64,000 nt of DNA from Escherichia coli (lineage in GTDB: Bacteria; Pseudomonadota; Gammaproteobacteria; Enterobacterales; Enterobacteriaceae). The stretch lies in NCBI RefSeq assembly GCF_050920415.1, contig NZ_CP169309.1. One strand, given 5' to 3'. Shown here one piece after another: positions 14,962 to 20,139 of this stretch (position 1 is the first letter of the stretch; each line of letters begins with the position of its first letter). The notes beneath the pieces are model-generated. The model searched no databases. It saw only the letters and a list, made by a program, of their open reading frames with translations, and had not been told where the DNA came from. Made by a program: the position numbers and the translations under genes.

Positions 14962-15492
14962 TCACACCAGATAATCAATATGCTGATGGCGTACCAACTC
15001 ATTGATCCGCTTAAGATTGAGGATCATCATGATATTGTGTTTATGGCAGTAGAACGTTTTTAGCGATATTTTCAGTTTCTCCAGAATATCTTCCGTTGTC
15101 ATTTGATTCGCAATGCAGCTTAGAACCTGATGCTGCTTGCGCGAAAGGGACACATCCGCTTCAGGCACAGAGCAGTAACTGCCATTGATGAGTGCGACAA
15201 AGTCGATGATGGTGATAGTTCGCGGAACAAAGGTCACCGGTACTTTCCCCAGGCAGCGTTTAATATTAAAGGGAGAGAAAATAATCACATGGACAGGTTT
15301 TAATCGTTCAATCTGAGTGAGCAAATTAGAATGAAATACATTATTCATTAATGTATCAATAATGACGAAGGCATGCTGATGCAACATTACGTCGATCTCT
15401 TCTTCGTTCTGTATATGAACGACATTACCTTTGCTCAGAATGTTTTTCATCGCAGTGAAGAACATCGTATCCCTGGTAATTATAAGAAACAT
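14962..15492 (-). CDS. dctR: LuxR-family regulator DctR (YhiF), 176 aa
   Basis: ORF track 176 aa; recognised. Confidence 0.93.
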   Translation of the reverse strand: MFLIITRDTMFFTAMKNILSKGNVVHIQNEEEIDVMLHQHAFVIIDTLMNNVFHSNLLTQIERLKPVHVIIFSPFNIKRCLGKVPVTFVPRTITIIDFVALINGSYCSVPEADVSLSRKQHQVLSCIANQMTTEDILEKLKISLKTFYCHKHNIMMILNLKRINELVRHQHIDYLV

Positions 15493-15647: not shown

Positions 15648-16214
15648 TTATTTGACCAGCTCAGGTGTTACTTGACTCACCGCATTGGTGTAGTAAGGCG
15701 CGCCCCAGCCCGGTTCCGGCCAGAATGCACCATAGCCGTAATCCCACAGGTTATAGGTGGTATTAACCACTTCTCTCAAATGCCACACCTGGATTCCCTG
15801 CATATTCACTTCCAGGAAGTTATACGGGACTTTATTGATAAAGCCAGGTTGTTCACCCTGAATGGTACCGAGGATGGTAACAAAGTGATTACGATAGTTC
15901 ACTGGATCAAGGAAGCCGCTTTGTCTGGCGAGCAGTCGGCCCTGATAGTTGGCTTCAATATCAGGCTTCGCATAGCTATCCAACGGTAATACAGCGATTT
16001 CTAACAACGTATCCGTTTTGCCATTGATAACGTTGATAACCTTCCCGCCAAAGCGCGCTTGTTGACCAACATATAACCCCGGCTGGTTATGAACAGCAAC
16101 AAAACTTTTTTGAATATCAGGTTGGTTATTGCCTTTGATATTTTGCGGAATTGAACTACATGCGGCAAGCAAAAATGAAAGGCTGAGGATGAGTGCACCT
16201 TTTGTCATGTTCAT
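15648..16214 (-). CDS. slp: Outer membrane starvation lipoprotein Slp, 188 aa
   Basis: Recognised from MNMTKGALILSLSFLLAACSS (lipobox); track ORF extends further upstream to 16433. Confidence 0.93.
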   Translation of the reverse strand: MNMTKGALILSLSFLLAACSSIPQNIKGNNQPDIQKSFVAVHNQPGLYVGQQARFGGKVINVINGKTDTLLEIAVLPLDSYAKPDIEANYQGRLLARQSGFLDPVNYRNHFVTILGTIQGEQPGFINKVPYNFLEVNMQGIQVWHLREVVNTTYNLWDYGYGAFWPEPGWGAPYYTNAVSQVTPELVK

Positions 16215-16459
16215 GTTACTATCCTTATCAACAAATATTAAAACCATAATAGATATTTCTTTATAGTTTTCATCTGATTCTGAGGCGATATGCCTGATAG
16301 TAACGTAAACCTGTCTGATGTTTATATCCCTTCTGTTTAGTTTTATTCTGTTAATTTTGGGGCGTGACATGAGTATCCATCGCCCCATAAAATAGCCTTT
16401 TTTTAAAGGTACATAAAATCTATTTTTATTCAATACTTATAAAGCGCTAATGTTCAATA

Positions 16460-17683
16460 TTATGGGGTTATATTCTGGTAATGATTTGATAAGCGAATTC
16501 TTTTGCCAGTTGGTATTTCTATTTCCACCCCATAATTTATAGTTTTTTCATCAGGTAGCGATCTCTTTAAATAAGGTGCGTATGACATTTTTTTAGGATG
16601 AAACGTATCGTGTTGAAATATTTCGAATTGATATTCAGACATTTCTGCCCATGTTTGAATTTTATTGTATCGGGAGAGTGTCGTAAAGGCTTTAACTTGC
16701 TTATAACATTGTTTTTGGAATTCTTGCTGATATTTTATTATGTCGTTGTATGAAAGATTATTTACCCTGGTTTCTAATAATTCTATTATTGTCGAAGCAA
16801 TTTCCGCTTTTGCTCTTAAAGAGTTGTCATTAATGGTTAATAATGTTGAAAATAAACCATTGATTTGTTTGTCAACATATTGTTCATCTTTATGTAATTT
16901 TGTGATAGGGTTTTCCTTATGTGAAAAAATAGTATCAAATAAATTTGCGTCAGTGAAGTTTACATTAAGTAGATCTTCGAAATAAAACCTTGACAAGGTT
17001 AGAACGAACCCGGACAGGTCCTGTCCTGTCATATTGAAATCAATAAAGTTGGTTCCAGCAAAGACTTTCATCCTGTTTTCATTTTTACTGTGCTCAATAT
17101 ACAACCTTGTCATTTTTTGGTACAAGCGTTGAATATCTTTTATATCAGTTGGTAGATCAGTTCGTTGCCCAGAAAAATTTTTATTTTCGGAAGAAACGGT
17201 TTGGACACTGAATCTTACTGGTATTCCCTCTTCTACGAGAATTTTAGTTATGATTGGCTTATTGGGCTTAGGATTAAAGACAACAATGATTTTAGATTCA
17301 GAGTTTTTATTCTTTTCGTATCTAATGTTATTAATCTGATTAAGTATTGATTGTGTCTGTTGCGTAAGTGGTGTCGAACTTATCGTTTCAATGTTATTAA
17401 TAAGTTTTACAAGTTGAGCCACAACTTTTGAGTAGTCTGCATTTGTATATGTGGTGTTCGTGTGGCACGCATTAATTTGTTGGAGTTGTTGTTTCGCTAA
17501 ATCAAATTGTTCAGCGTTATATCCTTCTTCAGACAATGAAAAATTAACGGGTTGCTGTTCTTCCTGATTATCACAAGGCCACATCGGTGTGTTTGGTGTT
17601 TTAACATTGTCGGTATCTGTTGTGCGGTTATAAATATCGCCGTGATATGTGTTTATCATACCTGGGGTAAAGTCAATTGACAT
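16460..17683 (-). CDS. yhiS: YhiS, uncharacterised protein, 407 aa; intact here (IS5-disrupted pseudogene in K-12 MG1655)
   Basis: Single 407-aa ORF in a strongly AT-rich block; position between slp and ars genes matches yhiS; no IS5 sequence present. Confidence 0.8.
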
Positions 17684-18263
17684 AACATTCCTTATTGTTC
17701 ATCTATTTCGCTAAATTTTTGCAAATCGGAGAATTAGAACAGGAATGGATTTTCTTCTACGCGGAAATAAACACAATGCGTCATATCTTCCTGATATAAT
17801 TACCTTTAACTTCCCTTTCATTTCCACCCGGTAATATTTGTGTATAAAAAAAGGGCAGTGATAGTATCGTAAAGGAAAACATTAACAACTATCAAAAAGC
17901 GCTCATTTTAAAAAGTTATGATGTTCTCCGATAGTGTGTGAAGTGATATTTTTGTGATGTTTTAGATGTGTAATAATGAACCAGGTTGAAGTGTATTTAA
18001 AAATGTGTTGTATTGGCGACTGAAATCTGCCCTTTAAAAGGGGGGATAGCACTGAGACAAAGAGGCATTGCTTCTCCGATAAAATGTCAGAGAAGCATGA
18101 TTGCGTGGTGATTGTCGATTGATGACTTACTGACGGATCCGTCATCATTCTCAAAGCATTAGTTAAGTTATTTGTGATTTTTAAGGATTATCCTATCTAT
18201 GATTTTCTACTCAGAAGGATAAGACACTCACAATGCTCCTTATAGTTTACTGCTGGCATCTAT

Positions 18264-19277
18264 TTAAAATAGCATTTGAGTCAAATAGCCCATCAAGATA
18301 GCCATACCTAAGATAACCGTCAGGAATGCAACTATCATCGGTATTCTGAACATTGATTTAAGTAATATCACTTCCGTCAGGCTTGCTCCGGCACTGCCGA
18401 TGATTAATGCCATTAATGCTCCCGGACCCATTCCTTTTGTCATCAGAACAGATGCCAGAGGGATAACCGCCTCTGCCCGGATATACAGCGGGATTCCGAC
18501 AACGGCGCTCAATGGGATGGCGAAGGGATTATCTGCCCCTGCATGAGCGGCAATCCACTCTGAGGGAATAAAGCCATAAATAAAAGAGCCTATTAATACC
18601 CCTAACAAAAGATATGGCAGTACATCTTTAAACTGTTGCAACGCATCTTTGGTGGCTAGTTTTATGGGATTAATACTTACCACAGCTTTGGTACTGCAAC
18701 AGTTTACTACAGGTTTCTCAATGGCTTTAGCCGCTGGACTACAGCAACTCACTTTTATTGGCGTATAAGTCGTCCCCGGCGAAGTTTTGGCTGGAGAGCA
18801 ACAATTTGCTGATGAGCTTTTACTGGCAATGATATGACGTTCAAATCTCAGAGAATCCAGGATAATACTGGCAAGTACGGAGACGCCGGCGGCGATAATC
18901 GCGTACAACAAGGTAACTTTCCAACCAAAGGTCACCCACATTAACCCGACGATAATGGGATTAAGTAACGGTGAAACAAATAAAAAAGTGAGAGTCGGAC
19001 CAAACCCGGCTTTCGCTGACAACAATCCACGTAGCATGGGTATTGTCGAGCAACTACAGAACGGGGTAACGGCTCCCAACAGAGCAGCCAGGAGATAGCC
19101 TCTCCCTTTTCTGGCCCCCATCATCTGCTGGATTTTATGGTCTGGCACCTTTTGTCTTATCAGGCTGACACCGGCACTAATCACTATAAACAGCAAAGAA
19201 AGCTCGACGGCGAGAAACACAAACATCTCTGCGGCATCTTGCAGCATCGCAAGCCAACTACTCATAAGTAACCTCAT
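18264..19277 (-). CDS. ArsP-family (DUF318) permease, putative organoarsenical efflux permease, 337 aa
   Basis: Polytopic membrane protein with TPFCSCSTIP motif (ArsP signature TPFcSCSxxP) and Cys-rich central loop (CCSP...SCCSP...NCCS); not present at this position in K-12. Confidence 0.75.
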   Translation of the reverse strand: MRLLMSSWLAMLQDAAEMFVFLAVELSLLFIVISAGVSLIRQKVPDHKIQQMMGARKGRGYLLAALLGAVTPFCSCSTIPMLRGLLSAKAGFGPTLTFLFVSPLLNPIIVGLMWVTFGWKVTLLYAIIAAGVSVLASIILDSLRFERHIIASKSSSANCCSPAKTSPGTTYTPIKVSCCSPAAKAIEKPVVNCCSTKAVVSINPIKLATKDALQQFKDVLPYLLLGVLIGSFIYGFIPSEWIAAHAGADNPFAIPLSAVVGIPLYIRAEAVIPLASVLMTKGMGPGALMALIIGSAGASLTEVILLKSMFRIPMIVAFLTVILGMAILMGYLTQMLF

Positions 19278-19290
19278 TGAATAAAACTAT

Positions 19291-19347
19291 ATTTCCAGAA
19301 TAATCGAAATAAAGTTCAGATCAAGATATTTCTGGTATTATCGAAAT
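19291..19347. promoter_or_regulatory. Two similar 20-bp dyad sites (ATTTC-N10-GAAAT) in the divergent promoter region; candidate ArsR-family operators
   Basis: atttccagaataatcgaaat (19291-19310) and atttctggtattatcgaaat (19328-19347) between divergent genes. Confidence 0.45.
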
Positions 19348-19372
19348 ATCAACCAGACAGAGGGGGTGACAC

Positions 19373-19693
19373 ATGCAATTGGAAGAGGTCGCTAAGGCAC
19401 TGAAAGAGTTAGGTCATCCGACCCGTTTGTTCATATTTAAGCATCTGGTCAAAGCGGGGGAACAAGGTTTGCCGGTCGGTGAGTTGCAAAAGCAGCTTGG
19501 GATACCCGGCTCTACACTCAGTCACCATATTTCAGCACTGGTATCGGTAGGGTTGGTCAAACAAAACCGTGAGAGTCGGACGCTGATGTGTGTTTCGCAA
19601 TACGCAATGCTGGAAGCGATAATTGAATTCTTACGTGAGGAGTGCTGCGTAAACAGCAAAACAGATAGCGAAGGAGCCACGAAGAACAAATAA
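19373..19693 (+). CDS. ArsR/SmtB-family transcriptional regulator, 106 aa, with C-terminal vicinal cysteines (Cys91-Cys92)
   Basis: Winged-helix core (LSHHISALVSVGLV); lacks the helix ELCVC metalloid site of canonical ArsR; divergent from the ArsP-like gene. Confidence 0.75.
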   Translation: MQLEEVAKALKELGHPTRLFIFKHLVKAGEQGLPVGELQKQLGIPGSTLSHHISALVSVGLVKQNRESRTLMCVSQYAMLEAIIEFLREECCVNSKTDSEGATKNK

Positions 19694-19713: not shown

Positions 19714-20139
19714 TTATTTCAGGCGTTTACCCGCTTCATCAACCACTTTCTCGCCATCTTCCTTGGTGAACGCGCCTTGTTGCGCATCTGGCAGAATTTC
19801 CAGCACGACTTCTGAAGGGCGGCACAGGCGAGTTCCCAGCGGCGTCACCACAATCGGGCGATTAATCAGAATCGGGTGCTGAAGCATAAAGTCGATTAAC
19901 CGATCGTCAGTAAATTTATCTTCTGCAAGGCCCAGTTCCTCATACGGCTCGACGTTTTTACGCAACAGCGCGCGTACGGAAATCCCCATATCGGCAATGA
20001 GTTTGACCAGCTCATCGCGCGTTGGCGGTGTTTCCAGATAATAGATAATGGTCGGTTCTGTACCGCTGTTGCGGATCATCTCCAGCGTATTACGCGACGT
20101 GCCGCAGGCCGGGTTGTGATAAATAGTAATGTTGCTCAT
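19714..20139 (-). CDS. arsC: Arsenate reductase ArsC, 141 aa
   Basis: ORF track 141 aa; MSNITIYHNPACGTSRNTLEMIR... recognised. Confidence 0.96.
   Translation of the reverse strand: MSNITIYHNPACGTSRNTLEMIRNSGTEPTIIYYLETPPTRDELVKLIADMGISVRALLRKNVEPYEELGLAEDKFTDDRLIDFMLQHPILINRPIVVTPLGTRLCRPSEVVLEILPDAQQGAFTKEDGEKVVDEAGKRLK

Follow-up and report, generated by a model that had tools for sequence, protein, structure and literature searches.

In Escherichia coli K-12, yhiS (b3504, UniProt P37635) is annotated as a pseudogene interrupted by IS5, and in the literature searched it is treated solely as an uncharacterized K-12 pseudogene. Here, we analyze a 64,000-nucleotide stretch of an E. coli chromosome (contig NZ_CP169309.1 of RefSeq assembly GCF_050920415.1, hereafter called the window), in which the same gene is found at the same locus (positions 16460–17683, minus strand). 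Unlike the K-12 copy, the window allele is uninterrupted, and its allele group, which is rare, differs from that of K-12. The product of the intact gene is hydrophilic and contains a short pentapeptide-repeat core, and the locus is both highly divergent among strains and repeatedly inactivated.

Comparison with described systems

The only part of YhiS that matches anything outside Escherichia is residues ~206–255, which share the repeat pattern of the pentapeptide-repeat proteins (PF00805) and fit the definition of the repeat. YhiS differs from those proteins in that its ~10 repeats are placed between two orphan domains and score below the gathering threshold of the family. Qnr and MfpA are all-repeat, dimeric proteins that act as DNA mimics. 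A DNA-mimic role of the Qnr/MfpA/McbG type was rejected for YhiS because its repeat block is too short, covering ~50 of 407 residues as compared with the ~180–220 residues of those nearly all-repeat proteins.

Effectors of the EspX/PipB2 type resemble YhiS in architecture, with a short, degenerate block of repeats that follows a long N-terminal part free of repeats and precedes a C-terminal tail, and in being encoded by AT-rich, lineage-restricted genes. Membership in the EspX family was rejected, as comparison of the YhiS alignment with EspX1 (ECs_0025) in hhalign gave a probability of 1.2%. In O157 Sakai, EspX1 itself (L028:8331–9752) has only a sub-threshold match to Pentapeptide_4 (E = 0.0027, residues 327–373), and such short degenerate blocks are easily missed by Pfam.

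Xenogeneic silencing and fast-evolving ORFans are concepts reportedly set out by Navarre in 2006 and by Daubin and Ochman in 2004. Like the AT-rich ORFans silenced by H-NS, yhiS has a G+C content of 33%, a restricted taxonomy, a raised ratio of nonsynonymous to synonymous substitution rates (dN/dS), and reported binding by H-NS and StpA in K-12 (PMC3661553; bioRxiv 10.64898/2026.02.10.705075). Unlike them, it lies off mobile elements and occupies a single fixed position in nearly every complete E. coli genome (5415 of 5426), and its within-species DNA divergence reaches 23%, which is far above simple fast evolution. The closest functional parallel to YhiS would be a small scaffold protein with pentapeptide repeats, and the gene appears to behave genetically like an H-NS-silenced ORFan. 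YhiS is not in any catalogued defense family.

Coding potential of the intact allele

In the list of open reading frames (ORFs), the coding sequence (CDS) is intact, running from an ATG start over 407 codons to a stop, and a Shine-Dalgarno-like AAGGA (17689–17693, minus strand) lies 5 nt 5' of the ATG. The stop-free run amounts to 412 codons, against a mean of 86 and a maximum of 207 when the same AT-rich block was simulated 2000 times with a first-order Markov model. Length is conserved across alleles, with 407 codons at 77–96% protein identity and 410 codons in an allele with 63% identity, and the ~270 substitutions that separate the window allele from the 410-residue allele include no stop or frameshift. 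Between alleles, dN/dS is 0.25–0.65 in yhiS, ~0–0.1 in slp, and ~0.05–0.1 in dctR (diverged pairs). Within allele groups, the ratio of nonsynonymous to synonymous changes is ~1.0–1.3 in four of the five groups having synonymous changes and 2.5 in the fifth, where 3.66 is the neutral value. Because the ORF is far beyond chance and preceded by a Shine-Dalgarno sequence, keeps its length across alleles, and shows a dN/dS below one together with a low within-group ratio, yhiS is a genuine protein-coding gene, and it has evolved under weak purifying selection.

Around yhiS, the window is exactly syntenic with K-12 (arsC ... yhiS-slp-dctR-yhiD). The K-12 copy is split by a 1195-bp IS5 flanked by a CTAA target duplication, and removal of IS5 and one CTAA copy restores an intact ORF of 407 codons. 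No IS5 is present in the window gene. By local alignment, the equivalent of the K-12 insertion point is 16939–16942 (codons 248/249, within the repeat segment), which reads TTAT and not TTAG (CTAA), and the window allele thus lacks that IS5 target site. The closest CDS is a 99.9% identical “hypothetical protein” in E. coli MFDS1022581.

Base composition sets the locus apart from its surroundings, with a local G+C of 0.30–0.36 across 16200–18200 as compared with 0.44–0.55 in the flanks. The CDS itself has a G+C of 0.33 (0.30 at third codon positions), and its product contains 9.6% Asn, 9.1% Thr, and 7.1% Gln. An earlier sequence-only reading of this DNA had described a single intact 407-residue ORF free of IS5, corresponding to the split K-12 gene, strongly AT-rich and encoding an Asn/Thr/Gln-rich protein, all of which agrees with the present results.

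Repeat core of YhiS

YhiS is a hydrophilic protein of 407 residues that consists of 30 conserved N-terminal residues, an orphan N-terminal half, ~10 repeats, an orphan C-terminal part, and a conserved tail. No membrane segment was seen in the hydropathy profile (maximum 19-residue Kyte-Doolittle value 0.92, grand average of hydropathy −0.64), and no signal peptide was found in the protein.

The pentapeptide-repeat segment (residues ~206–255, ten repeats; 16919–17068, minus strand) follows an x(D/N)(L/F)xx pattern with a period of five, in which D or N is frequent before the hydrophobic center. From residue 208 onward, ten of ten consecutive period-5 positions are L, F, M, I, or V (shuffle P = 0.0006). 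When a profile of the alleles was compared with the PDB, the top matches covered residues 203–255 and were Rfr32 (2F3L, E = 0.0055), followed by TL15 (3N90) and QnrB1 (2XTW), the last at E ~3. All of the distant protein matches that were scanned (n = 10) are Pfam Pentapeptide proteins, and PF00805 is the sole family matched by 18 of 19 alleles, with the window protein at 12.1 bits (E = 0.15), which is under the Pfam gathering threshold of 20.2 bits. The block is short and degenerate, with ~10 repeats, unlike that of a classical all-repeat protein.

The central peptide in which the sequence-only reading had seen a loose and speculative resemblance to pentapeptide-repeat proteins is located at residues 208–249, and the periodicity, the PDB matches, the distant matches, and the sub-threshold PF00805 matches give this resemblance support at the profile level. 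Its remark that no domain could be recognized also stands, as no curated family is matched at threshold. Searches of YhiS against Pfam, NCBIfam, PADLOC, and PHROGs gave no at-threshold match, the best PADLOC match being a spurious one to Cmr5 (E = 0.26) and the best PHROG match having an E of 8.2. Residues 1–200 and 260–407 are without detectable relatives, the exhaustive HMMER search described below having returned only yhiS fragments and generic pentapeptide proteins.

Constraint is unevenly distributed along the protein. It is strongest in residues 1–30 (17594–17683, minus strand; dN/dS 0.20 at a synonymous divergence, dS, of 0.31), which hardly change even in the allele with 63% identity, in residues 181–300 (dN/dS 0.14–0.38), which comprise the repeat core and the following helix, and in the C-terminal tail (16463–16573, minus strand), which in the alignments contains the longest invariant DNA run and is missing from truncated alleles of 371 residues. 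The lowest dN/dS values fall in the repeat segment and in residues 271–300. Constraint is weakest in residues 31–105 (dN/dS 0.6–0.86) and in residues ~331–375 (0.8–1.4; 16559–16693, minus strand), the latter being the most variable patch of the protein in a sliding analysis of 30-codon windows that is suggestive only.

Taxonomic range

A word-indexed search of 5.8 billion proteins gave 136 relatives of YhiS with 63%–98% identity. Among the relatives listed, the source names are all Escherichia coli or Shigella, and nearly every full-length member has exactly 407 residues. An exhaustive HMMER search of 1.84 billion representatives yielded one full-length cluster at 50% identity and fragments, the cluster members being named E. 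coli, Shigella, or “Escherichia sp.” The other matches in that search were long proteins that aligned within residues ~178–328, usually in several stretches; in the ten that were scanned, the aligned part includes the repeat.

At the DNA level, the yhiS locus was matched in 5415 of the 5426 complete E. coli genomes, always on the chromosome and at a single fixed site. Two scans of 100,044 species representatives, with one genome per species, detected no yhiS except on one contaminant contig. This 409-bp contig (L011, NZ_SRXN01000179.1, Ensifer sp. MPMI2T; coverage 0.77) shares 99.6% identity with the 3' end of K-12-type yhiS and almost certainly represents E. coli contamination. The gene is thus an orphan found only in E. 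coli sensu lato (E. coli, Shigella, and the members of Escherichia closest to them).

An origin from a mobile element was rejected, since the phage collection contained no yhiS match and the plasmid collection gave only three, all in records of 4.8–4.9 Mb. Judged by their size, these PLSDB entries (NZ_CP134663.1, NZ_CP141089.1, and NZ_OL790696.1) are evidently misfiled E. coli chromosomes.

Sequence divergence at the locus

The extreme allelic divergence of yhiS had gone unnoticed in the sequence-only reading. The window allele is rare, with one complete genome at 99% DNA identity or more and 259 at 95–99%; in all, only 260 of 5415 genomes reach at least 95% identity to this allele type. Most genomes, K-12 among them, share 80–90% DNA identity with it; the window and K-12 alleles are 88.9% identical in DNA, and K-12-type protein clusters are ~78% identical. 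The 410-residue allele (strains L010, L029, and L032) has 77% DNA identity and 63% protein identity to the window allele. At 6% divergence, the alleles fall into four deep groups.

The divergence is confined to a block around the gene. Mean pairwise diversity among eight strains is ~0.005 in slp versus 0.08–0.12 from ~16300 to 17900, the non-coding flanks included. The window YhiD, HdeB, and GadE proteins are identical between strains (YhiD and HdeB also to those of K-12), and Slp differs from that of K-12 by one residue. Compared with the window, strains with the 410-residue allele are 99.6–99.8% identical in slp and dctR and 96–99% identical in arsB. Against one of them (L010), the boundary on the slp side is sharp, the divergence being ≤1% at 16276, 10% at 16376, and 20–27% from ~16570 to ~18000. 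On the other side, the AT-rich intergenic region upstream of the gene (17684–18263, minus strand), which is presumed to be the yhiS promoter region, lies within the hyperdivergent block in the divergence profiles. Within arsC (19714–20139), the elevated divergence seems to fade; the strains with the 410-residue allele are 94–98% identical to the window in this gene, while arsB and arsR are mostly 96–99% identical.

Between alleles, dS is 0.07–0.6 in yhiS, 0.01–0.04 in slp, and up to 0.13 in dctR. The dctR gene occurs in two haplotypes (dS ~0.12–0.13) that produce a local 6% divergence peak at 15100–15350, next to a nearly invariant slp.

The yhiS alleles are mosaic. The Hudson-Kaplan minimum number of recombination events (Rmin) is 46 over 194 informative sites, a test of the pairwise homoplasy index (PHI) type gave P < 0.001, and the blocks are visible in the alignment. 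No donor lineage was found for the deepest, 410-residue allele, and none was located outside E. coli sensu lato. The “Escherichia sp.” strains that carry this allele were considered as evidence of a distant donor and rejected, because their flanking genes are 96–100% identical to those of the window.

Inactivation among complete genomes

Disruption was assessed in 30 complete genomes taken at even steps down the ranked match list, each locus being translated directly because the pseudogene flags of the Prokaryotic Genome Annotation Pipeline (PGAP) are unreliable. A census based on these flags was rejected after an allele flagged as “frameshifted” was found to read through 407 codons. This allele belongs to the O145 strain RM8988-C1 (L016, NZ_CP035770.1), in which RefSeq applies the flag to a gene with all 407 codons open. 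Conversely, in strain 142 (L017, NZ_CP028609.1), a frameshift-truncated product of 371 residues is annotated as a normal protein (WP_001303709.1).

The gene is intact in 11 of the 30 genomes and disrupted in 19, with at least ten different lesions. The most common is a slippage frameshift from T7 to T6 at CDS position 761 (n = 7), which corresponds to 16924–16929 (minus strand) in the window, where the window has a T6 run and K-12-type alleles have T7. A 900-bp deletion of the ST131 type that removes codons ~132 to the end was found in five genomes, recognizable by a coverage pattern of 44%; in a BLAST comparison with one such strain (L003), the absent stretch corresponds to 16391–17290 of the window. 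One base is lost at or beside an A-run near CDS position 1089 in two genomes, one of which would yield a 371-residue product while the other also has an upstream frameshift. The window has an A7 run here (16588–16594, minus strand), at which a 1-nt loss leads to the 371-residue product in other strains (clusters P0050, P0051, and P0102). The remaining lesions are IS5 insertions (n = 2), another single-base deletion (n = 1), a nonsense codon (n = 1), and an ISKpn26-associated deletion (n = 1). Four of the frameshifted alleles (L014, L020, L021, and L027) contain a second lesion, and the gene is frameshifted in FWSEC0007, an O103:H2 strain positive for the locus of enterocyte effacement (LEE).

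Across all 5426 complete genomes, the T6-ACAT frameshift haplotype occurs exactly in at most 1112 and the T7 intact type in at most 1367, and in 1102 genomes the locus is covered to less than 80%. These counts are in line with the 30-genome sample. By our own estimate, yhiS is disrupted in roughly 63% of complete genomes (rough binomial interval 44–80%), and it has been inactivated independently many times. Disruption in most strains, which the sequence-only reading had named as an outcome that would count against it, is approximately what the sample gave, yet the window copy is intact.

Regulatory context and neighboring genes

The gene order in the window is gadA-gadX-gadW-mdtFE-gadE-hdeD-hdeAB-yhiD-dctR-slp-yhiS-permease-ArsR-like-arsCBR-gorA, as on an E. 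coli chromosome. yhiS sits between slp, which is immediately adjacent and part of the same low-G+C stretch, and the permease/ArsR module. The acid-fitness island is usually defined as reaching from slp to gadA, which would place yhiS just outside. The sequence-only reading had put the gene inside the island next to slp; the present analysis places it beside slp at the island edge.

No GAD box was found near yhiS when the 64-kb window was searched with up to three mismatches. The sole window match within that limit lies upstream of gadA (2496–2515) and is the known GAD box there, a perfect one of 20 bp (TTAGGATTTTGTTATTTAAA). In K-12, both yhiS and slp are among the genes downstream of YdeO-binding sites, and overexpression of YdeO induced slp-dctR and left yhiS, in its IS5-split form, unchanged (PMC4222967). 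With no GAD box and no response to YdeO in K-12, the gene does not qualify as a member of the acid-fitness-island (GadE/YdeO) regulon; it is at the slp edge of the island but not demonstrably in its regulon. A promoter scan near yhiS gave no more sites than shuffled sequences, no terminator-like site was found after the gene in the yhiS-slp intergenic region (16215–16459, minus strand), which holds the slp promoter region, and Rfam gave no match.

Binding by nucleoid proteins has been described at the K-12 locus. A table of “promoter islands” that marks H-NS complex formation includes the IS5/slp intergenic region and that between arsC and yhiS, the K-12 counterpart of the presumed yhiS promoter region of the window (PMC3661553), and yhiS is among the high-affinity StpA sites able to keep chromatin structure without H-NS (bioRxiv 10.64898/2026.02.10.705075). 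Neither the Keio deletion of yhiS nor its ASKA clone affected the minimum inhibitory concentration (MIC) of chlorhexidine (PMC8170033), and fitness screens have employed the pseudogene as a neutral reference (bioRxiv 10.64898/2026.05.27.727350). The gene is otherwise mentioned in passing, in connection with IS5-mediated deletions or with mutations in intergenic DNA (PMC7260982, PMC13034041, PMC6928379).

The interval between arsC and yhiS varies by the presence or absence of the permease module. In the window (18264–19693), this module consists of a permease gene (337 residues, minus strand) and a divergent gene for an ArsR/SmtB-family regulator (106 residues). It is missing from K-12, NCTC86, ST131-type strains, and the strains with the 410-residue allele. 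The permease gene is split by IS2 in MFDS1022581, the closest genome, and truncated beside an IS5-like element in strain 1919D62.

Possible roles of YhiS

The explanation we favor, and to which we give an even chance, is that YhiS may be a silenced, dispensable accessory protein that uses its repeat as a binding scaffold and provides a small, conditional benefit. The repeat block would fold into ~2.5 turns of a right-handed beta-helix, and, placed between the two orphan domains, this helix would act as a rigid scaffold for protein binding. YhiS would be made only when H-NS silencing is lifted, and its benefit would be conditional and small, for which reason the gene would be kept in some lineages and lost in most. 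The gene is considered dispensable because it is disrupted in 19 of 30 genomes, because its deletion leaves the chlorhexidine MIC unchanged, and because it serves as a neutral reference.

Several observations weigh against this explanation. Every PF00805 score among the alleles stays below threshold (best E = 0.037). AlphaFold2 models built with alignments of 19 and of 119 sequences both have a mean predicted local distance difference test (pLDDT) score of 34, with values of 20–31 over the repeat region, and the beta-helix fold and scaffold role are therefore drawn from the sequence alone. The regulatory data all come from K-12, whose copy of the gene is split by IS5. Lastly, weak selection and silencing by themselves leave a DNA divergence of 23% between flanks that are 99–100% identical unexplained.

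The gene could alternatively be a decaying relic without present function, whose intact alleles, including that of the window, have not yet been hit and whose purifying signal is inherited. We consider this unlikely, though still a serious contender. Only 11 of 30 genomes are intact, and the lesions are many and independent (T7 to T6, A-run loss, other indels, nonsense, IS5, ISKpn26-associated deletion, and the 900-bp deletion), with double lesions in four alleles, as expected of true pseudogenes. The T6 haplotype in up to 1112 genomes and the incomplete coverage in 1102 point in the same direction, as does the K-12 locus, which is silent, bound by H-NS and StpA, and without effect on the chlorhexidine MIC when knocked out (PMC3661553, PMC8170033). 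A relic would however be hard to reconcile with ~270 substitutions that introduced neither a stop nor a frameshift into DNA rich in potential stops, with a within-group ratio of nonsynonymous to synonymous changes of ~1 versus the neutral 3.66, and with the selective conservation of the N-terminus, the repeat core, and the C-terminal tail. The sharp bounds of the hyperdivergent block (≤1% at 16276 versus 20–27% at ~16570–18000 against L010), the dS of up to 0.6 versus 0.01–0.04 in slp, the strong mosaicism (Rmin 46, PHI P < 0.001), the dN/dS of 0.6–1.4 in residues 31–105 and 331–375, and the lack of a donor lineage outside E. coli sensu lato would all suit a conflict-type locus (anti-phage, anti-competitor, or immunity), at which balancing or frequency-dependent selection keeps alleles old and diverse and the repeat scaffold would offer variable surfaces to a partner that changes quickly, a reading that we hold to be improbable. 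In a more specific form of equally low probability, yhiS would be an overlooked hypervariable locus of the E. coli core chromosome whose ancient alleles, up to 23% diverged in DNA between flanks of 99–100% identity, are maintained in this way; the repeat-scaffold protein, once relieved of H-NS, would meet a fast-evolving partner (a phage, a competitor's toxin, or a host factor), and the cost of carrying it without that partner would lead to repeated loss. No PADLOC or PHROGs model was matched, though, and yhiS has no partner gene next to it. Divergence is as high in the non-coding flanks as in the coding sequence, and protein-level diversifying selection is therefore not required. Allele frequencies are also very skewed, with most genomes in the 80–90% band and 260 of 5415 at 95% or more to the window type, and frequent outright loss is hard to reconcile with selection for diversity.

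By analogy with EspX and PipB2, YhiS might also be a secreted, type III effector-like pentapeptide-repeat protein following the same working principle, with delivery by the LEE or by E. coli type III secretion system 2 (ETT2). We regard this as the least probable of the readings. The architecture recalls EspX1 of O157 Sakai (473 residues, short sub-threshold repeat at 327–373), an N-terminal stretch of 30 unusually conserved residues gives way to a variable region, and an AT-rich, silenced, lineage-restricted gene for a protein without signal peptide or membrane segment would be in keeping with an effector. The profile comparison with EspX1 speaks against it, as do the lack of any effector family among the protein or structure search matches, the frameshift in the LEE-positive O103:H2 strain, the occupation of one chromosomal site in essentially all E. 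coli irrespective of their secretion systems, and the lack of an adjacent chaperone gene.

Significance

The gene itself is already catalogued as b3504. As far as the searched literature shows, its repeat core, the degree and sharpness of its within-species divergence, and the scale and variety of its inactivation are new. The intact gene is real, selectively constrained, and confined to E. coli and its nearest relatives, and its product has a pentapeptide-repeat core. It is among the most divergent syntenic stretches of this chromosome region and is also repeatedly lost, which makes it a compact natural case of orphan gene birth, maintenance, and decay. A practical warning also follows, as annotation of the locus is inconsistent, with an intact ORF flagged as frameshifted and a truncated one accepted as normal. 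The unexplained divergence is the one feature of yhiS able to raise its importance: if it is maintained by selection, the locus would serve as a new indicator of conflict within the core genome of E. coli, and if not, yhiS would be an ordinary silenced ORFan.

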